A stretch of 64,000 nt of DNA from Alphaproteobacteria bacterium (lineage in GTDB: Bacteria > Pseudomonadota > Alphaproteobacteria > GCA-2731375), in contig CBDDBZ010000034.1 of assembly GCA_965225945.1 (NCBI GenBank), forward strand, positions 352,280 through 416,279, read 5' to 3'. Every line of letters begins with the position of its first letter. The stretch's first letter is position 1. A model generated the notes under the pieces. That model did not search any database and was not told the origin of the DNA. It saw nothing but the letters and a program-made list of their open reading frames with translations. The position numbers and the translations under genes are program-made. Of the stretch, positions 269 through 50,008 are shown piece by piece.

Positions 269-1198
269 ATGGATTACCGCACCATCGCCACCGGTCTGCG
301 CTTTCCCGAGGGGCCGATCGCCATGCCCGACGGCTCGGTGATCCTGGTGGAGATCGAGCGCGGCACCCTCTCCCGCGTGAGGCCCGACGGCACGGTCGAG
401 GTGGTGGCGGAGACCGGCGGCGGGCCCAACGGCGCCGCCATGGGCCCGGACGGGCGCTGCTACGTCTGCAACAACGGCGGCTTCGAGTGGCACTACCAGG
501 AGGACGGGCCGGGCATGCGCTCGATCGGCCAGGCCGCCGACTATGTGAGCGGCCGGATCGAGGCGGTGGACATCGAGACCGGCGAGGTCGAGGTGCTCTA
601 CACCCAGTGCGGTGATATCCAGATCAAGGGCCCGAACGACATCGTCTTCGACCGCCAGGGCGGCTTCTACTTCACCGATCTCGGCAAGGTGCGGAAGCGC
701 GAGTGGGACCGTACCGGGATCTTCTACGCCACCATCGACGGCAAGCACATCGAGCAGGTCGCCCATCCCCTGGTGACGCCCAACGGCATCGGCCTCTCGG
801 GGGACGAGAAGACGCTCTACGTGGCCGAGACCTGGACCGGTCGGCTCTGGGCCTTCGACGTCGAGGCGCCGGGAGTGCTGGCGAAGCAGCCCTTCCCCTC
901 GCCGCACGGCGGCCGGCTGGTCGCCAACACGACGGGCTTCCGCAACTTCGACAGCCTGGCGGTCGAGGCCGACGGGCGGATCTGCATCGCCACCCTGATG
1001 AACGGCGGCATCACCGTGGTGACGCCCGACGGGAGCGAGATCGAGCACGTCGAGGCGCCCGACGCCTGGTACACCACCAACATCTGCTTCGGCGGCGAGG
1101 GTTTGAGGACGGCGTATATAACCCAGTCCTGGCACGGCACGCTGATCGCCTGCGAGTGGCCCCGCCCGGGCTTGCCGCTCAATTTCTTGAATATTTGA
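269..1198 (+). CDS. SMP-30/gluconolactonase/LRE family beta-propeller protein
   Basis: GLRFPEGP, GGPNG, GPNDIVFD, TPNGIGLS, FDSLAV and TTNICFGG motifs; GAGGAG RBS upstream. Confidence 0.9.
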   Translation: MDYRTIATGLRFPEGPIAMPDGSVILVEIERGTLSRVRPDGTVEVVAETGGGPNGAAMGPDGRCYVCNNGGFEWHYQEDGPGMRSIGQAADYVSGRIEAVDIETGEVEVLYTQCGDIQIKGPNDIVFDRQGGFYFTDLGKVRKREWDRTGIFYATIDGKHIEQVAHPLVTPNGIGLSGDEKTLYVAETWTGRLWAFDVEAPGVLAKQPFPSPHGGRLVANTTGFRNFDSLAVEADGRICIATLMNGGITVVTPDGSEIEHVEAPDAWYTTNICFGGEGLRTAYITQSWHGTLIACEWPRPGLPLNFLNI

Positions 1199-1248
1199 GG
1201 AGGTAGACAGCGGCCGGGCCGTTCGACCCACCGATCCCGTCCATTGCC

Positions 1249-2295
1249 TCACATCCGGCTATACCATGTTCCTTTTCTAGTGCCGTGCTGAAACAGATGG
1301 CTGGCCGTTACCAACGATTGAAGGTGTTTTTTCACGGTATTGCGGTTTGCGCCCGTGATCTTTACGACATCGCGAATCGTCATCCGTCCATGTTCCTGGG
1401 CCAGTTCGAGAATTTGAACGGATAGTTCGGGCAGCGCACCGAGCATGATGCGTTCGCGCTCGAGCTTTATTTCGAGCCGTCTTTTCTGCCGTTGCAAGGC
1501 GCGCAGGAAGTAGGTGATCCATGGCGTCCAATCGGGGCTATCACCACGGATCGTGCCCTGAGTTCCGCGCAGAGCGACGTAATAGCTTTCCTTGGTTTGC
1601 TCGATCACGCTTTCCAATGAGCTGTAAGGTATATAGGCGTACTCGCCGCGCAGGAGCAGCAGCGTGGTCAGAATTCGTGACAGCCGACCATTGCCATCCT
1701 GGAAGGGATGAATCTCCAGAAAAACCACGATGAAGAGCGCAACGACAAGGAGTATGTGGAGTTGGCGTTCCTCCAGCGCGGTCACGGTCCAGGCGACAAC
1801 TTCCGACATCAACCGGGGCGTATCGAAGGGAGAGGCCGTCTCCAAGACGATGCCGATCTCGTTGCCGTCGACATCGAAGGCGCTCACATGGTTAGGGTCG
1901 GTTTTGTAGTTGCCCCGGTGCCATTCGTCCTTGGTGCTATGAATCAAAAGATCTCGATGAAGCTGCTTGATGTGATTTTCGGTGATGGCGTCGGCATTGG
2001 CGAATACCGTCTCCATCACCTCCGCGTAACCGGCGACTTCCTGTTCGTAGCGCGTTTCAAATTTCATGATTTCCAGATTTGCGAGCAGCCGCTCGACGTC
2101 CTTGTCGGAAAGTCGGCTGCCTTCGATCCGCGTGGAAGAACCGATGCTTTCGACCGTCGCAACCCGGCGCAGCGCGGACAGCCGCTCCGGTGCCAGCATT
2201 CCGAACGCCCTCCACGCCCCCTTGAATTCATCGATCTCGGCGATGAGGGCGAGCATCTCGGGCGTGATTGCCAATGAGTCGGCCTTGAATGCCAT
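1249..2295 (-). CDS. Fic family protein with C-terminal winged-helix HTH
   Basis: Fic motif HPFQDGNGRLSR; SSTRIEG; C-terminal HTH (GANRNTVKKHLQSLV); visibly lower GC than neighbours; start taken at ATG 2295. Confidence 0.9.
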   Translation of the reverse strand: MAFKADSLAITPEMLALIAEIDEFKGAWRAFGMLAPERLSALRRVATVESIGSSTRIEGSRLSDKDVERLLANLEIMKFETRYEQEVAGYAEVMETVFANADAITENHIKQLHRDLLIHSTKDEWHRGNYKTDPNHVSAFDVDGNEIGIVLETASPFDTPRLMSEVVAWTVTALEERQLHILLVVALFIVVFLEIHPFQDGNGRLSRILTTLLLLRGEYAYIPYSSLESVIEQTKESYYVALRGTQGTIRGDSPDWTPWITYFLRALQRQKRRLEIKLERERIMLGALPELSVQILELAQEHGRMTIRDVVKITGANRNTVKKHLQSLVTASHLFQHGTRKGTWYSRM

Positions 2296-2466
2296 ACCCA
2301 AAAACTTACCCCAAACTACCCACAATGACAAGGTGAATACGAAATAGCCAGAAATCAACCCGTAAATACCCGTAAATGCGGCTATTTCAGGTTCGAGGCC
2401 AGCGCGGAGATCCGGTTTGGATGGCTGCGCCTCCCGCGCAACGCCGCCGACGAGCGGGCCTTCCCC

Positions 2467-4053
2467 TCAATGTGGCAGGTCGAAGGCCTCGGCGAAGCGG
2501 TTGTAGCAGGCCAGGGGATCGCCGTATTTGCGGTGGCCGGCGCTGTGGTGCGCCGAGACCACCAACAGCAGCTCGCGCTCGGGCGACGTGGTGCGGAGAT
2601 AGTCCTCCAGAGTGATCTGGGCGATCTCCTGGTTATGGGGATCGTTGCCGATCTTGCAGCCGATGAACGCCAGGCGTTGCACCAGCGGGCCGCGATCGGC
2701 GCCCGAATCGAGATAGGCCTGGGTCCAGTTGCGGCTCTCCTCGGGGTCGAGCGCCAGCACCACCTCCTCGATGCGCTCGAGGATCGCCGCCTCGCTCATC
2801 CCCTCGGCCGCCGCCGGCGGCTTGATCTCGACCGGCCCGTTGCCCGGGACATGGGCCTGGTGGTGGGCCACCCGGTTGAGGAAGGCGGCGGCGAGGAACA
2901 GCAGCTTCACCCGCTGGGGATGCTCGAAATTGGCGTAGAACCAACCCAGCGTGTTGCAATATTCGTAGCAGTGCTGCGACATCGAGAAATTCATCGGCTC
3001 ACCGGTCTCCAACACCACCCGGGCGGCGGCGATCTGGATCGTGTCGATCAGGTGCATCAGTGATTTCCCGGCCTTCAGCAGGTCGGCCAGCACTTCGAGA
3101 TAGCCGGGCTCCGGCTCGCGGATGATTGCGGTGATCAGCCGTTCGGCCTCCTCGCCCGAGAGCCCATCGGCGTTGGCGTAGAGTGCGCGTTCCTCCTCGG
3201 CGGTGCCGCCATAGGGCACGGCGCTCAGCTTCTGGCCCTCGATGAAGATCTTCACCGCGTTGCAGGCGAGCTCGTAGGTCGAATACCAGCGCGGGCCGAC
3301 GGCGATATCGAGGGCGCCGGCATAGATCACCGGGTGCGCGTTCTCGTGGCCGACCGCGCGGGCCAGCTCCACCGTCGCGCGGGCACGATAAGACTTGTGG
3401 CCGGTGGTGTAGGAGCGGTTGTGCAGCATCCGGTCCTGCACGTCGATCAGCCCGGCGAAGACCAGCTCGGCGAGCGCCCGCTCGCGGTTCGAAGGCTCCT
3501 CGTAGAGGCCCCGGAAGATTCGATAGGCCGCCATCACCTCGCCCCGGTGGACCAGGGTCATCCAGTGGCCCAGCCGCTCCTCCACCGTGCCCGGCTCGCG
3601 AACCGCCTCGGCGTCCGGCCAATGCACGACGGGCACCGGAGGCGGGCCCTCGGGCAAGGTAAAACCGCGCGCGTAGTGGCCCGGTGCCTTCAGGATCTTC
3701 TGGTTCCAGATGTCGAGGCCGGTCGGTATGTACCAGATGGTCTGCGCCAGCGGCAGGGCGCCGTATTCGCCCGGCACCAGGCGTGCCAGATGAATCGCCG
3801 CCCGGGCACTCAGCAGGCAGTGGTCGTTGTTGACGAAGTTGACGTAGCCGTCGTCGATCCGCTCGTGATAGGGCACGTGGGTGAGCGGCCCGTGGATCCG
3901 CACCGCCTCCAGCACCATTTCCTCGAACGGCCGGCCCTCGCGCACCAGGTCGTAATAGGTATCGCTGGCGCCGTGCTGGTCGCGGGCCAGGATGCGTTCC
4001 TTCAGCCGCTCGTAGAGGGCGCGATCGTCCCCCGTCGTCGCCTGCATCGTCAT
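2467..4053 (-). CDS. Uncharacterised helical-repeat protein with four conserved His-containing motifs
   Basis: Long ORF with host-like codon bias and a GGAGGA RBS before ATG 4053; repeated helical blocks containing NDHC, TGHK, SQHC and DPHN. Confidence 0.75.
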   Translation of the reverse strand: MTMQATTGDDRALYERLKERILARDQHGASDTYYDLVREGRPFEEMVLEAVRIHGPLTHVPYHERIDDGYVNFVNNDHCLLSARAAIHLARLVPGEYGALPLAQTIWYIPTGLDIWNQKILKAPGHYARGFTLPEGPPPVPVVHWPDAEAVREPGTVEERLGHWMTLVHRGEVMAAYRIFRGLYEEPSNRERALAELVFAGLIDVQDRMLHNRSYTTGHKSYRARATVELARAVGHENAHPVIYAGALDIAVGPRWYSTYELACNAVKIFIEGQKLSAVPYGGTAEEERALYANADGLSGEEAERLITAIIREPEPGYLEVLADLLKAGKSLMHLIDTIQIAAARVVLETGEPMNFSMSQHCYEYCNTLGWFYANFEHPQRVKLLFLAAAFLNRVAHHQAHVPGNGPVEIKPPAAAEGMSEAAILERIEEVVLALDPEESRNWTQAYLDSGADRGPLVQRLAFIGCKIGNDPHNQEIAQITLEDYLRTTSPERELLLVVSAHHSAGHRKYGDPLACYNRFAEAFDLPH

Positions 4054-17692: not shown

Positions 17693-17918
17693 GCGGCTGG
17701 TCTCCATGTGACGAACCGTGCTAGCGTCGGCCTCGCCGAGCGTAGGGAAGCCGGTGCGGTCCGCGCGCGCGACTATTATGGACGTCGAGCGGGTCAATTC
17801 CGGCGCTGCCCCCGCAACTGTAGGAAGGAGGGCGCGGCAGAAAGCCACTGGTTCGGGAAGCACGATCCGGGACTGGGAAGGCGCCGCGTCCGACGACTTC
17901 GAGCCAGGAGACCTGCTC
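17693..17918 (+). promoter_or_regulatory. Cobalamin (B12) riboswitch
   Basis: AGGGAA-CCGGTG...AATTCCGG-GCTGCCCCCGCAACTGT...GCCACTG...CTGGGAAGGC...GAGCCAGGAGACCTGC in order, directly upstream of cob genes; boundaries approximate. Confidence 0.93.
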
Positions 17919-45618: not shown

Positions 45619-45862
45619 CGCAATAATTCCCCGATGGTAGAATGCGTAGTCGGCCTTTATTGGTGCATTCGACTAGGTTCGTATTCTCAGCAAAACTATA
45701 GCACCTTCGCGCAATCTCGTGAACTATGATCTTAGATTGACTCCTTCGGGTCATCAGCCAACGAAAGTCGAATCCTGTCGCCACATGCGAAACCTCCGGC
45801 AAAGTGGATATTGGCACTCGGATGGTCGCGGTAGGGAAGCGGGTTGCCGCGCTCCCCCCGCA

Positions 45863-45976
45863 GTTACGGTAGGAATGCGCATTGCTGCGCACCCCCCGCG
45901 GTTACGGTAGGAATGCGCATTGCTGCGCACCCCCCGCGGTTACGGTAGGAATGCGCATTGCTGCGCACCCCCCGCG
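45863..45976 (-). repeat. Three identical tandem 38-bp group II intron domain VI units
   Basis: CGCGGGGGGTGCGCAGCAATGCGCATTCCTACCGTAAC (minus strand) at 45863-45900, 45901-45938 and 45939-45976, with no spacers. Confidence 0.93.
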
Positions 45977-47857
45977 CAGATCCGGACGTGGTCGTTGAAC
46001 CATCCGGCTCCTACCTCGGGTGCTTGACGGCAAACCGCTGGTCCGGCCATGGGTGGCGGATGGAGGCGCGTGGCCACAGGATTTCGGTCATGCGCTCCAG
46101 TCGCTTCCAACTAAATCGGGCTCGCTGGGACCGGCGGCGTAGCGCCCGCATCCACCGGCGTTGCAGCCTGCGGAGGAACGCACGGATGAACCGGCCTGAC
46201 CCTGGGACGGCAAAGTAGTTGAGCCAGCCATTGCAGACTCGCCCCAGCCACCTACCAACTTCCCAGATGTCGTGGTGCCAGCGCTTGCGGAGCACCTCGT
46301 CGATGCGCGCCAGGGTCCTGTTGACCCGTTTGGCGACCGGTTTGCGACCAAGCCGAAAGCGTCCTCTCAGGGTCGTCGTGCAATAGTGCGTGAGGCCCAG
46401 AAAGTCGAAAGTCTCCGGCTTGCCCACCCCGCGCTGGCGCCGGTTCAAATCCGCGAACCGGCCAAACTCCACGAGGCGGGTCTTGTCCTGGTGGAGGCTG
46501 AGACCGAACCGGGCCAGCCTCTCCCGAACGTCGCGGAGGTACCGCTCCGCATCCCGCTTGTGTTGGAACCCGACAACGATATCGTCAGCGTAACGGACGA
46601 TGATCGCTTCGCCATCCGGGACGTTCGGGCGCCATTTCTTGTGGAACCACAAGTCGAGCACGTAATGCAGGAACACGTTCGCCAAGACGGGGGAGACTAT
46701 TGCCCCCTGCGGCGTGCCCATACCCGTATCTGCCCATGACCCACTCTCTATGACGCCGGCGTTCAGCCATTTCCGGATCAGACGGATGACCCGCCTGTCT
46801 CCGATGCGGTGCTCTAGGAACGTGATCAACCAATCCCGCGGGATCGTGTCGAAGTACGCCCGGAGGTCTGCATCGACTATCCAGCTGACCTTGCGCCGTT
46901 CTATCCCGAAGGCCAGGGCATCGAGCGCATCGTGCGCCCCCCGCCCCGGTCGGAACCCGTAGCTGAAGCCAAGAAACACCACCTCGTAGATCGGTGTCAG
47001 GATCACATCCACAACCGCCTTCTGGACGACCTTGTCCTCCAGCGCCGCGATCCCGAGCGGTCGTGTCCCCCCGTCCGGCTTGGGTATCTCTACCCGCCGA
47101 ACCGGCGGCGCCCGGTACGCTCCCCCTCTGTGCAGGCGCCGGTGCAGGTCGAGCAGGCGCTCATCCAGACCCTCGCCGTACATGTCCCACGTAACGCCGT
47201 CGACACCGGCTGCTGCGTCCTTCTTCAATGCGAAGTAGGCCGCACCGAGCGCGTCCGGCGTAATGTGGTGGAAGAGCGAAGTGAGACGTTCCTTCGGGTT
47301 TCTCTCTGCAGCTTTCCGTATCCGGGCCGCCGCCTGTGGCACGCTTACCCGACACTGTGTTCGGCGCGTGCTTTGGCAATCCGGATTCCCCTTGGTTGAG
47401 GCCCTTTCCTCCGGCGACTCCGCAGAAGCTCGCGCTCCCTTGTTCGCCGCCCTCACAGGTCGTACGGCCTCATCCGACTTCTTCAAACCGTTCATCATAG
47501 GCTTCGGTTTTCTCCATTCCCTACGCGGCCCCTTTACGACAACCGGGGCAGTTTGAAGACCTCCCAGGGTCCCAACAGAAGGCGTGCGAACGTGCATGGG
47601 TTCTCTGACACCGCGGGGCTCGCCGACATCTCACCAAAACGACGCCTGCGATATTGCCTTCGACCGATCTGAAAGCCTCGGCACCCCGGACCATCGCTTT
47701 TACGGTGCTCAATAGCCCTGCCCATCCATGCCGCTACCGACGCTTCGCCTGCCCCCTCACGGGAGCCAACGCACGGCTCGCGGAGAAACGTGGTTCGGTT
47801 ACTCCTTCGTTCCGGGGGACTTGCACCCCCTACCTTCTGCCAGTTCGCCTGGCGCAC
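45939..47857 (-). mobile_element. Inner group II intron, full length (bacterial class E-like by appearance)
   Basis: 5' end GTGCG at 47857; IEP in DIV; DV GAGCCGGATGGTTCAACGACCACGTCCGGATC at ~45979-46010; DVI with bulged A, ending AAC. Confidence 0.92.
46011..47498 (-). CDS. ltrA: Group II intron reverse transcriptase/maturase, no endonuclease domain
   Basis: AAGVDG, IPKPDGGTRPLGI, SYGFRPGR, GTPQGAIVSPVLAN, RYADD, FDFLG and GWLNYF; ends after domain X. Confidence 0.95.
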   Translation of the reverse strand: MMNGLKKSDEAVRPVRAANKGARASAESPEERASTKGNPDCQSTRRTQCRVSVPQAAARIRKAAERNPKERLTSLFHHITPDALGAAYFALKKDAAAGVDGVTWDMYGEGLDERLLDLHRRLHRGGAYRAPPVRRVEIPKPDGGTRPLGIAALEDKVVQKAVVDVILTPIYEVVFLGFSYGFRPGRGAHDALDALAFGIERRKVSWIVDADLRAYFDTIPRDWLITFLEHRIGDRRVIRLIRKWLNAGVIESGSWADTGMGTPQGAIVSPVLANVFLHYVLDLWFHKKWRPNVPDGEAIIVRYADDIVVGFQHKRDAERYLRDVRERLARFGLSLHQDKTRLVEFGRFADLNRRQRGVGKPETFDFLGLTHYCTTTLRGRFRLGRKPVAKRVNRTLARIDEVLRKRWHHDIWEVGRWLGRVCNGWLNYFAVPGSGRFIRAFLRRLQRRWMRALRRRSQRARFSWKRLERMTEILWPRASIRHPWPDQRFAVKHPR

Positions 47858-47910
47858 CAGACCCGAGCGGGCGCGATTGACGCACTCGGTTCCTCACCTG
47901 GCAGGTTCGC

Positions 47911-48295
47911 TCAAGAGTTTTGCCATGAGCGCGTGAACGTGACTGGCGGCAGGGGATGCCGCTTGAGGATTTCTGCCATCCGGTCCCAGTTCAGGCACCT
48001 GAGGCGGCTGCGGCGTGTAAGCCACTTCCGCCAGATGCGGACGACCTGGTAGCGGAACCAACCGAGACGTTTGCCATTTCCCGTCAGACCGTAATATGCG
48101 CAGTGGCCTCGGATCACCTTAGCGAGGTGATCCCGCTGAGCCTCGATCGGCAGGTGCCGGTGTCTCTTGCACCAGTCGTGCACCGATTTCAGCGCGCGGG
48201 CGAAGCGGCCCTTCGCCGTGATTTGACGAACGACGTCCTTGCCTTGCATCGACCGCCCCCAAACGTGGGTGAAGCCGAGGAAGTCGAACGTCGTG
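47911..48295 (-). pseudogene. C-terminal fragment of a second, divergent group II intron RT/maturase
   Basis: TFDFLGFTHVWG...IRGHCAYYGLTGN...WRKWLTRRS...HPLPP. Confidence 0.85.
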
Positions 48296-48489: not shown

Positions 48490-48630
48490 CCCCGAAGTAC
48501 AGCCTCCTTAGGGGTCATACCGACTAAAATACGCAACCGGCGAAAGTTGGTTCAGCAATAATTGTGAGTCGGACCCGATTTCCTTGGACACAGAATTGGT
48601 TTAATCGAAGTGTCCAAGGAGGACCGGAAC

Positions 48631-49041
48631 ATGACCGACAATTTTGAAAACAAAGTTGCTGTTGATGGGCCTGTGGTAAACGAGGGCGAGCTTGGCTCGT
48701 CCACGTTTTCCCCGGGCCAGGTTTCGCCGGCAGGCCCGCTGGGACTTGGCCAGCGGTGGACGGTGACGCGCAAGCGTGAGGTTGCCCTGCGGCTTTTGCG
48801 TGGCGAGCCGGTGGAACTTTTGTCGCGGCAGTTGGGCGTGGAGATTTTCCGGCTCGAGCAGTGGCGTGAGAAGGCGATCGCCGGGATCGATGCCTCGCTC
48901 AAGGAACGCAAGGGCGATCCGGTAAAGGCGGAACTGGACATCGCCATGAAGCGGATCGGGGAGTTGATCATGCAGGTGGAACTGCTGGAGGCCAAGACGG
49001 AGACGTCCGGCCCTTTGGGGCGGCGGAGGTCGCGGCGATGA
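48631..49041 (+). CDS. Transposase OrfA (HTH)
   Basis: RWTVTRKREVALRLLRGE...LSRQLGV, then a leucine-zipper-like tail. Confidence 0.8.
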   Translation: MTDNFENKVAVDGPVVNEGELGSSTFSPGQVSPAGPLGLGQRWTVTRKREVALRLLRGEPVELLSRQLGVEIFRLEQWREKAIAGIDASLKERKGDPVKAELDIAMKRIGELIMQVELLEAKTETSGPLGRRRSRR

Positions 49042-49949
49042 GTGCCGCCACCTCTCCCGGCACGGGTTTGGCCTACGGCCTCCAGCGGGTCTGTGCGGCC
49101 TGGGGTTTTGCCCGTTCCTCGTTCTACGCCATGAAATCCCGGCAGCAGGCCACCGCTGAGCGCCCACCAGCAAAGCGCCGGGGACCGAAGCCCTCGATCT
49201 CGGACGAGGCTCTGCTGGTGGCCATCGAGGCCGACCTGGAGGCATCCCCCTGGGAGGGCGAGGGACACCGCAAGGTCTGGGCTCGGCTTCGGGTCTGTCG
49301 TGGCATCCGTGTTTCCCGCAAGCGGGTGCTCCGGGTGATGCGCGAGAACAACCTGCTCTCGCCCCATCGCTGCCGCCGCCGTGGCGGAAATCCCCATGTC
49401 GGTGAGATCATCACCCATGCCCCCAACCTCATGTGGGGCACGGACGGCGTTCGGGTGTTCACGGTGGACGACGGCTGGGGCTGGATATTCACCGCCATCG
49501 AGCATTGGAACGCCGAGTGCGTCGGCTGGCATGTGTGCAAGCGAGGCGACCGCTTCGCCGCCCTTCAGCCGATCTCCATGGGGCTTGCGAGGCTGTATGC
49601 CTCGACCTCCGCCGGTGCGGCGCGGGGGCTGGCCTTGCGGATGGATCACGGCTCCCAGTATCTGTCGGACCACTTCACCAACCAGATCAAGTTCTGGGGC
49701 ATCCAGCCGTCCTACGCCTTCGTCGAACAGCCCCAGACCAACGGCGTCGCCGAGAGGTTCAATCGCACGCTCAAGGAACAGATCATCCATGGCCGCATCT
49801 ACCGCAACATCGCGGAGCTGCGGAACGCCGTCCGCGGGTTCGTCGAACAGTACAATGCCCAGTGGATCGTGGAGAAGAACGGCTACCTGAGCCCCGCTCA
49901 AGCTCGTCAGGCGTGGCACACCGCGATGTCACTCAGGCCCGCCGCATGA
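49038..49949 (+). CDS. DDE transposase OrfB (rve core)
   Basis: NLMWGTD, MDHGSQY and PQTNGVAERFNRTLKE; ATGA overlap with orfA. Confidence 0.9.
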   Translation: MSAATSPGTGLAYGLQRVCAAWGFARSSFYAMKSRQQATAERPPAKRRGPKPSISDEALLVAIEADLEASPWEGEGHRKVWARLRVCRGIRVSRKRVLRVMRENNLLSPHRCRRRGGNPHVGEIITHAPNLMWGTDGVRVFTVDDGWGWIFTAIEHWNAECVGWHVCKRGDRFAALQPISMGLARLYASTSAGAARGLALRMDHGSQYLSDHFTNQIKFWGIQPSYAFVEQPQTNGVAERFNRTLKEQIIHGRIYRNIAELRNAVRGFVEQYNAQWIVEKNGYLSPAQARQAWHTAMSLRPAA

Positions 49950-50008
49950 GACAAACTTGTGTCCAAGGAACCGGGTGCGATACATTCAGCAATAATTGCT
50001 TATTCGGA

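Follow-up and report, generated by a model that had tools for sequence, protein, structure and literature searches.

A group II intron in the window (the whole stretch of 64,000 nucleotides that was analysed) probably carries the EBS1 loop of an element that homes into the DV/DVI junctions of other introns and that also inserts into itself, forming nested arrays. The pairings, the covariation, the junction sequences and the junction counts on which this reading is built were all observed.

Organization of the locus

The inner intron occupies the DV/DVI junction of a different group II intron, which is truncated by an insertion sequence (IS; Table 1). The outer DV is followed by the complete inner intron and then by the outer DVI, which is the arrangement of a twintron. 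Most body copies and fragments elsewhere in the genome are near-identical to the body in the window, at 99.2-100% identity, and two further body copies had diverged to 97.2% and 95.1%. The DVI units were detected as a tandem repeat with a period of 38 nt and 3.9 copies, and the predicted fold of a unit (-21.4 kcal/mol) has a UA bulge located 7 nt before the 3' end. The DVI array begins exactly at the predicted insertion point and every unit stops exactly at the intron 3' end. The C-terminal fragment of the outer maturase gave a GIIM match of 19.3 bits, under the Pfam cut-off of 23.

Table 1. Coordinates of the intron features in the window, with the basis of each assignment
Feature	Position	Strand	Basis or remark
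Inner group II intron	45939..47857	-	1,919 nt: 1,881-nt body (GTGCG through DV and linker, ending GATCTG) plus first DVI
Domain I core	47599..47823	-	RF02005 (group-II-D1D4-6), 163.7 bits against a gathering score of 49, model 1-225/225
EBS1 hairpin	47656..47682	-	Sequence, RF02005 alignment, fold
EBS1 CAGAUC	47666..47671	-	Intron positions 187-192; covariation
EBS2 AGCGAUG	47692..47698	-	Intron positions 160-166, 13-nt bulge 5' of the EBS1 hairpin; covariation
EBS3 A	47606	-	Intron position 252; complementarity to exon +1
RT/maturase, 494 aa	46011..47495	-	RVT_1, 1.4e-36; TIGR04416, 347.5 bits against a cut-off of 300
Domain V, inner intron	45979..46010	-	RF00029 alignment; hairpin with 2-nt bulge, -12.3 kcal/mol
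Self target GATCTG	45977..45982	-	DV end plus 2-nt linker, directly 5' of first DVI; perfect EBS1 complement
Three identical 38-nt DVI units	45863..45976	-	45976-45939, 45938-45901, 45900-45863; two surplus
Outer (host) intron DVI, diverged copy	45825..45862	-	Sequence; fold, -22.7 kcal/mol
Outer intron DV (47892-47860) plus linker TG	47858..47892	-	Sequence, fold; last 6 nt are the inner IBS1
Outer maturase C-terminal fragment, 131 aa	47911..48306	-	26% identity to inner residues 357-489, E 4e-7
IS3-type insertion sequence truncating the outer intron	48552..50000 (ends approximate)	+	rve, HTH_21, HTH_Tnp_1

The inner intron has the parts expected of a mobile group II intron. It starts with GTGCG, aligns with the full length of the RF02005 domain I model, and pairs with its flanking exons through EBS1, EBS2 and EBS3. 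Its DV folds as a hairpin containing a 2-nt bulge, and UA is bulged in its DVI. RF00029 (DV-DVI) aligned over model positions 1-77 with an E value of 1.5e-4, although its score of 35.4 bits falls short of the gathering score, which is 40. Throughout the clade the AGC triad of DV has its G opposite A rather than U. The ribozyme comprises about 430 nt. The intron-encoded protein, whose reading frame lies in domain IV, matched reverse transcriptase and maturase families (RVT_1, TIGR04416) and, for the maturase (X) domain, GIIM weakly (21.8 against 23), and no endonuclease domain was detected in its 494 residues. In the window's genome nearly identical copies occupy many sites, and 11 of 14 full-length bodies retain the 494-codon open reading frame intact, which indirectly suggests that copies are still active.

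Group IIC introns lack an EBS2, have an EBS1 of 3-4 bp and enter directly downstream of terminator or attC stem-loops. The present intron does not fit this description, having a 6-bp EBS1 and an EBS2 that covaries with flank positions -9 to -14. Hairpin targeting of the IIC kind was likewise rejected, since the tendency to form hairpins at the 13 non-intron sites did not exceed that at 1,500 control sites with the hexamer (Mann-Whitney p 0.56). Among solved structures the intron-encoded protein is nearest to IIC reverse transcriptases (7uim, 1e-46), ahead of LtrA and TeI4h, a similarity that does not by itself assign a class (D, E, F or other).

Target recognition

The hairpin reads GCCGA-GGCU-UUCAGAUC-GGUC-GAA-GGC on the minus strand with CAGAUC in its loop, as the earlier note had described, and only the span given there (47683-47655) required correction, being one base too wide on each side (47682-47656). 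On rechecking of the sequence, the loop paired as claimed with the intron's own DV/DVI junction GATCTG (6/6 Watson-Crick) and with the actual 5' flank GGTCTG, which abuts the intron start at 47857 (five Watson-Crick pairs and one G-U). In the RF02005 alignment the hairpin is a stem-loop whose loop is variable. Folded alone it forms the same stem-loop at -7 kcal/mol, an energy that does not surpass that of shuffled sequences (z -0.54). Taken alone, the hexamer match showed no significant excess over chance: the window has 73 occurrences of G[AG]TCTG where 69 would be expected, and the genome has 8,685. The above-chance case rests on comparative and genomic evidence and not on the hexamer match.

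An unbiased covariation scan over the intron columns of 20 related intron lineages provided the comparative evidence. The columns that covaried best with flank positions -1 to -6 were exactly intron positions 187 to 192 (17-19 of 20 lineages). EBS1 paired with its own flank at a mean of 5.50 of six positions, compared to 4.12 for mismatched lineages, and none of 20,000 shuffles reached the observed value among the 18 lineages with distinct loops. Pairing was complete (6/6) in 11 of these 18 lineages and in 3.6% of 304 mismatched pairs. On this comparative evidence CAGAUC is the EBS1 of a mobile group II intron, in agreement with the earlier assignment.

The lineage comparison also located EBS2 and EBS3, for which the earlier note had proposed a search. 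Flank positions -9 to -12 and -14 mapped to intron positions 160-163 and 166, with a matched mean of 4.50 against 3.64 that none of 20,000 shuffles equaled. The EBS3 adenine was Watson-Crick complementary to the first base of the 3' exon in 17 of 19 lineages, and the runner-up column reached 10 of 19. At the window locus CGCT (47869-47866) is the IBS2 and GGTCTG (47863-47858) the IBS1 of the inner intron.

These assignments do not support the earlier suggestion that the intron's best target is itself. At the foreign junction in the window (CGCTCGGGTCTG followed by T), EBS2 forms all four pairs and EBS1 and EBS3 pair as well, whereas at the self junction (CGTCCGGATCTG followed by C) EBS2 is reduced to one mismatch, one wobble and two Watson-Crick pairs and the EBS3 A mismatches the C at +1. 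The cognate target is thus a DV/DVI junction that belongs to a different family of introns. EBS2 appears, from the sequences compared, to be co-adapted to the DV strand of the host family: position 161 is G opposite C(-10) in the window's lineage and A opposite U(-10) in genome G037.

Covariation of EBS1 with the intron's own DV end, which the earlier note had proposed to test, was not seen among the relatives; J5/6 stayed steady while EBS1 varied, and EBS1 covaried with the 5' exon instead. The J5/6 sequence was GGAUCUG (or GGAACUG or GGUUCUG) in lineages with EBS1 loops as unlike as CGCAUC, GCAAAU, CCAAUG and UACGAU. The loop of a second domain I hairpin (GUCGUU) could pair with that of DV (AACGAC), but visual inspection showed that relatives do not keep this pairing, and it was rejected.

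Self-insertion in the window's genome

The source assembly is a draft resembling a metagenome-assembled genome (39 contigs, 96.55% complete, 5.58% contamination), and the nested arrays are known from this one assembly, in which three contigs terminate inside arrays. The genome has 14 intron 5' ends, of which eight lie after the intron's own DV end, three after the DV end of another intron (in the window, C24 and C37) and three elsewhere. Body-body junctions were present at eight places on four contigs in different unique flanks. Own DVI-DVI junctions numbered 16 on five contigs, which is not a clean count of events as DVI arrays can also expand and contract by slippage. No junction of a DVI with an intron 5' end was found in the window's genome. 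Eight insertions after the own DV end, together with DVI-DVI junctions and the lack of DVI-to-5'-end junctions, argue for nested self-insertion, and the three tandem DVI copies in the window are its scars. The earlier proposals that the intron inserts into its own DV/DVI junction and that each inserted copy carries along a fresh junction were thus borne out by eight such junctions.

One array, C38:555991-562657, has at least four bodies followed by exactly four DVIs, and other array loci include C31:260176-265560 and C33:304671-307775. No differences separate the three full units in the C38 array, and units within the C31, C37 and C33 arrays differ by SNPs or a 12-nt insertion. Similar SNP haplotypes occur in separate arrays (for example C33, C38:142077 and C37), although depths and unit haplotypes differ among loci and the arrays are cut by IS elements or truncated in locus-specific ways. 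In Logan contigs of four public runs (two RNA, two of unrecorded kind; contigs only, not reads), matched against window positions 45700-48000, those of the RNA runs covered the intron; no joints were listed, and there were 29 loose ends.

Sites matching CG[CT]NNNG[AG]TCTG were occupied at 8 of 18 own junctions and at 3 of 537 other sites. This 80-fold excess is not accounted for by the three pairings and may reflect a further recognition element or purifying selection against genic insertions. No free foreign J5/6 site was present in the genome; among the 18 motif matches, the only intron junctions were the intron's own 10 copies. The sense strand of the intron itself contains two G[AG]TCTG sites, J5/6 and 47171-47166 within the open reading frame, and the latter carried no insertion in any genome copy.

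Relatives in other genomes and metagenomes

Homing after DV was not confined to the window's lineage. Four relatives (L040, L042, L044 and L070) are located after DV-like flanks, and G037 has 33 insertions in foreign DV/DVI junctions. In contrast, self-nesting was absent from five other genomes with close relatives, which indicates that complementarity alone is insufficient for self-homing and further weakens the earlier notion of a best target in the intron itself. In one of these genomes (G033), an intron of 99% identity occupies 10 sites outside introns and is not nested. In G037 the own junction, GGATCTG followed by T, looks even better as a target, yet self-nesting was not seen there; G037 does have head-to-tail copies, joined 3' end to 5' end and 1,918 nt apart.

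A metagenome scan for an intron 3' end joined to a DVI start gave 12 hits, of which L133 was the sole true case of an intron in a junction. In L134 and L140 the intron 3' ends are followed by CGCGGGGGG-like sequence, and the other nine hits were rejected as chance matches in unrelated, in several cases apparently coding, sequence. The same pattern was not found in 32 other genomes of the order or in the 400 genomes of the class that were searched.

Proposed mechanism and alternatives

The target is read by EBS2 (AGCG...) at -12 to -9, by EBS1 (CAGAUC) at -6 to -1 and by EBS3 (A) at +1. The sequence fitting all three is the 3' strand of DV and the DV-DVI linker of another group II family (CGCUCGGGUCUG followed by U). 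Because a foreign DV/DVI junction provides all three pairings, the lineage would home into such junctions, and its own junction is a near-cognate site since GGAUCUG closes DV across the whole class. That self site has been used repeatedly in the window's genome, probably through reverse splicing into DNA, with replication forks priming the cDNA synthesis. Each self-insertion would yield the order body-(body-DVI)-DVI, and repeated events would yield an array in which n bodies precede n DVIs. The 1.9-kb bodies would then recombine homologously with one another, which would remove bodies and spare the short DVIs, which would explain the one body and three DVIs in the window.

The arrays could instead be assembly artefacts, with single copies only and a self-complementarity without consequence. 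This is improbable, even though the assembly is a contaminated draft with contigs that end within arrays, the full units of C38 are identical, the public-run contigs on the locus reported no joints and the five related genomes show nothing comparable. Assemblers may miscount units, but they do not invent junction sequences, and here eight body-body and 16 DVI-DVI junctions stand in different unique flanks; unit-specific SNPs or the 12-nt insertion and the locus-specific interruption or truncation of arrays also speak against an artefact. A chance match combined with tandem DVIs produced by replication slippage alone is hardly credible. The hexamer is common and short tandem repeats do slip, but slippage cannot make body-body junctions, so this explanation is refuted if the assembly is right. 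Moreover, the two ends of the repeated unit coincide exactly with the predicted insertion point and the last base of the intron, and the other sense-strand hexamer site was never used.

Self-insertion might also have taken place at the RNA level, by reverse splicing of an excised intron into the single-stranded J5/6 of another intron RNA, after which the composite would be copied and would integrate or move as one piece. If a composite moved as a unit, few primary events would cover many loci. Intron RNA is the most abundant nearby substrate with the site, own junctions are preferentially occupied, a nested array with normal intron termini could in principle move as one element, and SNP haplotypes are alike across arrays. 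We nevertheless regard this route as unlikely: depths and unit haplotypes differ by locus, the 33 separate foreign-junction DNA loci of G037 fit ordinary DNA retrohoming, and a composite with at least 1.9 kb between DV and DVI may not fold. A conserved intramolecular pairing of EBS1 with J5/6, for instance as EBS1 masking, would account for a perfect 6/6 complement within one RNA; it is very improbable, as J5/6 is near-constant opposite entirely different EBS1 loops, and EBS1 follows the 5' exon instead.

Comparison with known systems

The case is a novel variant of known twintron and nested-intron behaviour. Nested arrays of up to five introns are described in Methanosarcina acetivorans (Dai & Zimmerly 2003, via PMC4424553, PMC2882425). 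These resemble the present arrays in repeated site-specific homing into group II introns, the lack of a host gene, loss of copies by homologous recombination and a perpetual homing site. The target there is the open reading frames of related introns, whereas here it is the DV/DVI junction of the ribozyme core; that system is archaeal, and in the present, bacterial one the intron also inserts into copies identical to itself, with stacked 38-nt DVIs as the residue. In the twintrons of Thermosynechococcus elongatus (Mohr, Ghanem & Lambowitz 2010, PMC2882425), the ORF-less F3 enters domain IV of F1 between two start codons, one level deep, whereas here an ORF-carrying intron enters between DV and DVI and also enters itself.

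Self-directed insertion has parallels in two other reports. In Escherichia coli EcKTE56.groEL (Gomes et al. 2025, PMC12584367) a second copy similarly reuses IBS1/IBS2 with a non-cognate EBS3-IBS3, but the full copies stand head to tail (3' to 5' end), an arrangement present in G037 and not in the window's genome. The mitochondrial intron cox1i1149g2 of Lycopodiaceae (Zumkeller, Gerke & Knoop 2020, PMC7049729) is also inserted in its own copy, although as a single organellar event into domain IV, with a degenerate and unspliced inner copy and no arrays. Clostridium tetani C.te.I1 (PMC4424553, PMC3919590, PMC4024640) likewise has one body followed by several 3' modules, each with a 3' splice site. 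Its DV+DVI repeats are spread across coding exons and give alternative protein isoforms, whereas the units here are DVI only, directly tandem and in non-coding DNA. No report of DV/DVI-junction homing or of DVI stacks was found in the literature searched, subscription papers and supplements being outside its scope.

Implications

Spliceosomal introns and non-LTR retroelements presumably descend from group II introns, and it is a long-debated question how the latter can multiply without the death of their host. More tentatively, and at somewhat less than even likelihood, the lineage may be hyperparasitic, with the DV/J5-6/DVI core junction of other introns as its cognate site, and may turn on itself once foreign junctions are exhausted, building nested arrays. 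If so, insertion would split the catalytic DV of the host from the branch-site DVI and thereby disable the host intron until the guest splices out, an instance of conflict between introns, and the surviving DVI stacks would be both a record of past events and a set of multiple 3' splice sites. An intron's own catalytic core would supply a conserved, non-essential "safe haven" in every intron of the class.

The lineage would offer a case from nature in which an intron is a parasite both of other introns and of itself, with a target code (EBS2, EBS1, EBS3) mapped to single bases. Its natural cognate and near-cognate sites would let the contribution of each pairing be measured, and the arrays would be material for the study of sequential or alternative 3' splice-site use. 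Annotators should be aware that nested introns can leave behind tandem DVI-like repeats and direct repeats of 1.9 kb. Some relatives have junction substitutions that break pairing with their own EBS1 (GGAACTG in L070 and some G037 copies, GGTTCTG in L044), and these could be a form of self-immunity.

Recognition sequences of the inner intron

The features of the 1,919-nt inner intron and of the arrays that it forms elsewhere in the genome are collected in the table. The proposal of an earlier note that this intron homes into itself was based on the complementarity of the loop CAGAUC to the intron's own junction of domains V and VI (DV/DVI; GATCTG, 45982-45977). By itself, this hexamer match is not more than chance, as the window contains 73 copies of G[AG]TCTG (69 expected), the window's genome 8,685 and the sense strand of the inner intron two. 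The finding thus stands or falls on independent evidence.

Features of the inner intron, its outer (host) intron and nested arrays in the window's genome (body, intron start to GATCTG)
Feature	Position	Strand	Evidence or context
Group II intron start, GTGCG	47857	-	Sequence
Domain I, RF02005 (group-II-D1D4-6)	47823-47599	-	Rfam, 163.7 bits (gathering score 49)
Flagged hairpin, GCC-GA-GGCU-[UUCAGAUC]-GGUC-GAA-GGC	47682-47656	-	CAGAUC at 47671-47666
Reverse transcriptase (RT)/maturase, 494 aa	47495-46011	-	TIGR04416, 347.5 bits; RVT_1, 1.4e-36
DV, then linker TG	46010-45979	-	Sequence, Rfam alignment, fold
Three identical 38-nt DVI units	45976-45863	-	Directly 3' of linker TG
Fourth DVI, diverged	45862-45825	-	After the three identical units
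Outer intron maturase, C-terminal 131 aa		-	5' flank of inner intron; 26% identical to inner protein
Outer intron DV hairpin, then TG	47892-47860	-	5' flank; fourth DVI lies past inner intron
Array	C38:555991-562657		3 full bodies, fourth cut by contig end; then exactly four DVIs
Array	C31		2 bodies, third cut by contig end
Array	C37		2 bodies; 1 DVI
Array	C33		1.5 bodies; 5 DVIs
Array	C38:141849-144738		1.4 bodies; 6 DVIs
Single-body loci	C39; window locus		1 body and 3 DVIs each

Introns encoding relatives of the RT/maturase (99-65% identity) were taken from public genomes at 80 loci, and the 5' end and homologous hairpin were mapped in each. The hairpin loop differs among lineages and follows the last six exon bases (CGCAUC/GATGCG, GCAAAU/ATTTGC, CCAAUG/CATTGG, UACGAU/ATCGTA). 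With the splice site set by alignment, the loop was compared with its own flank in 18 lineages that differ in loop sequence: 11 paired 6/6 and 16 at least 5/6, as against 3.6 and 26.6%, respectively, of 304 mismatched lineage pairs; none of 20,000 shuffles attained the observed mean. A position-free scan of every flank position against every alignment column in 20 lineages gave intron positions 187, 188, 189, 190, 191, and 192 as the top columns for flank positions -1 to -6 (17-19 of 20 lineages paired), which are exactly window 47671-47666. Covariation with the 5' flank in both analyses confirmed the assignment of CAGAUC as EBS1, and the sequence, coordinates and pairings first described for the hairpin were correct, its coordinates having been drawn one base wider per end.

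EBS2 and EBS3, which the earlier note had left to be found, were both located by covariation scans. EBS2 occupies intron positions 160-166 (window 47698-47692), within a 13-nt bulge just upstream of the EBS1 hairpin, and pairs with -9 to -14 (0/20,000 shuffles). EBS3 is position 252 (A, 47606); in 17 of 19 lineages this base is the Watson-Crick partner of the first base of the 3' exon (runner-up column, 10 of 19). The three mapped guides indicate that the target is read as by a IIB-like intron, and class IIC was rejected on this basis, yet in comparison with solved structures the RT most closely resembles IIC RTs. When relatives were checked for EBS1/DV-end covariation, DV ended in GGAUCUG in nearly all clade members regardless of EBS1, which rules out a conserved intramolecular pairing of EBS1 with the junction. 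Sequences and simple folds place G opposite A, not the usual U, in the DV 'AGC' triad throughout the clade (GAGCC...GGAUC; window copy and loci L031-L104); in DV of the outer intron family (GAACC...GGGUC or GGAUC), A takes the usual place of the triad G, opposite G or A.

Insertion into the junctions of other introns

The outer maturase end, DV and TG before the inner intron and the fourth DVI after it place the insertion exactly between DV and DVI of a second, different group II intron, which an IS3-type element truncates on the upstream side. At this site, CGCU pairs 4/4 with EBS2, GGUCUG pairs with EBS1 by five Watson-Crick pairs and one G-U, and U pairs with EBS3. Relatives with the same EBS1 in other genomes follow DV-like flanks (L040, L042, L044, L070), one complete chromosome (G037) holds 33 sites at which a foreign DV end meets the intron 5' end, and public metagenome contigs added one further case of homing into an intron junction. 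The three-guide pairing, the flanks and the G037 junctions identify the point between DV and DVI in other group II introns as the cognate homing site of the lineage.

The terminal sequence (...aaatcgggtccgactca) of the IS3-type element (window 48552-50000) recurs where the intron body at C38:144738 is cut (C38:~144739), and the element appears to land in intron arrays as well. The intron splits an IS3-family orfA-like gene (...GIAEGL|YYSWSKEF...) at one identical position both in L035 of genome G033 and at C20:119926-121843 of the window's genome; the C20 copy is degenerate (9 stops in the maturase frame). A third intron type (GTGCGCCGGAAAAACCGG...) lies downstream of arrays, after TGCGGG of the outer DVI, at C33:~304560-304670 and C24:~80900-80992 (-); the C33 copy has ~32 nt of DVI-like sequence in place of ~10 nt within its domain I.

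Nested copies in the window's genome

Body (positions 1-1881) and DVI were mapped separately across the window's genome, the one draft assembly from which nested arrays are known, and several loci consisted of a run of bodies followed by a run of DVIs. Exact-junction counts in this genome placed the intron's own DV end directly before 8 of 14 intron 5' ends and gave 16 own DVI-DVI junctions but no DVI-to-5'-end junction. This order is the expected product of insertion after the GATCTG of a resident copy, and the DVI repeat unit exactly matches the stretch that begins at the predicted insertion point and ends with the last intron base. The absent DVI-to-5'-end junction would be expected from head-to-tail tandem integration, from intron circles and from end-to-end template switching, and slippage is unable to produce body-body junctions. 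SNPs or a 12-nt insertion distinguish units inside the C31, C37, and C33 arrays and thereby speak against a simple assembly loop. The 494-codon reading frame is intact in 11 of 14 full-length bodies. The outermost C31 unit (C31:260175) begins TTGCG rather than GTGCG; this mutated first base should block its 5' splice site.

At the window locus, two further self-insertions would give three bodies followed by three DVIs, and recombination between the 1.9-kb direct repeats would then delete whole bodies but spare the 38-nt DVIs, leaving one body and three DVIs. Body loss is the step we infer; a review reports that in Methanosarcina acetivorans arrays insertion is balanced by recombinational loss in the same way (PMC4424553). 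Recombination that resolves abortive cDNA synthesis, or slippage inside the DVI array, could also have changed the DVI number.

Preference for the intron's own junction

The claim that the intron's best target is itself did not hold. The self site is only near-cognate: EBS1 pairs 6/6, but EBS2 pairs as x:|| and EBS3 stands opposite C. Among sites fitting CG[CT]NNNG[AG]TCTG, 8 of 18 own junctions were occupied vs. 3 of 537 others, and pairing does not explain this preference. The second G[AG]TCTG within the intron was never used in the window's genome. Either a further feature of the junction is recognized or insertions elsewhere were purged; an effect of a hairpin at the target site was unsupported by the 13 non-intron sites. 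Apart from the intron's own ten, the window's genome has no free intron junction of this type, which fits our conjecture that self-homing is spill-over after foreign sites run out.

Five other genomes that carry close relatives showed no self-nesting, the public metagenome contigs searched showed no nesting, and order-level and class-level genome samples yielded nothing. In G033, a 99%-identical intron occupies ten non-intron sites. In G037, the own junction is GGATCTG|T, but the intron has instead entered the foreign site again; the resulting head-to-tail tandems (spacing, 1,918 nt) resemble those described for the E. coli groEL intron (PMC12584367). The tandems of this 82%-identical relative (L059-L071, L098) are full-length (ccgtaac|GTGTGCC); many copies carry EBS1 CCGAUC, not CAGAUC, and copy L069:4419 follows GGATCGG. 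In some junction-homing relatives (the L070:3249 and L044 introns, some G037 copies), the own junction is GGAACTG or GGTTCTG, which breaks pairing with the own EBS1 and could represent self-immunity, but GGAACTG also occurs in lineages with unrelated EBS1 (L093, L094).

Group II intron homing into other group II introns is already known, with reports of insertion into intron ORFs in M. acetivorans (PMC4424553) and into domain IV in T. elongatus (PMC2882425); a plant mitochondrial intron entered its own domain IV once (PMC7049729). In the main-text literature searched, we found no report of a lineage that homes into the ribozyme core between DV and DVI, of arrays at least four deep built by repeated self-insertion or of DVI-unit stacks as scars.

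Public sequencing runs and other observations

Runs X1, X3, X15, and X17 were examined over window 45700-48000. No joints were reported for the public-run contigs (not reads) aligned to the window locus. Summed word depth in two runs of unrecorded kind was ~1,000-3,000 over the intron vs. ~12 over unique flank, a sum over organisms rather than a copy number. RNA-run contigs span the intron, end at its 3' end (45938/45939) and run on as foreign DVI-like sequence. Several runs containing this stretch are labeled sponge metagenome. Unrelated to the intron, the window carries a cobalamin riboswitch aptamer at 17744-17914 (+) (RF00174, 82.7 bits; gathering score 31.5).
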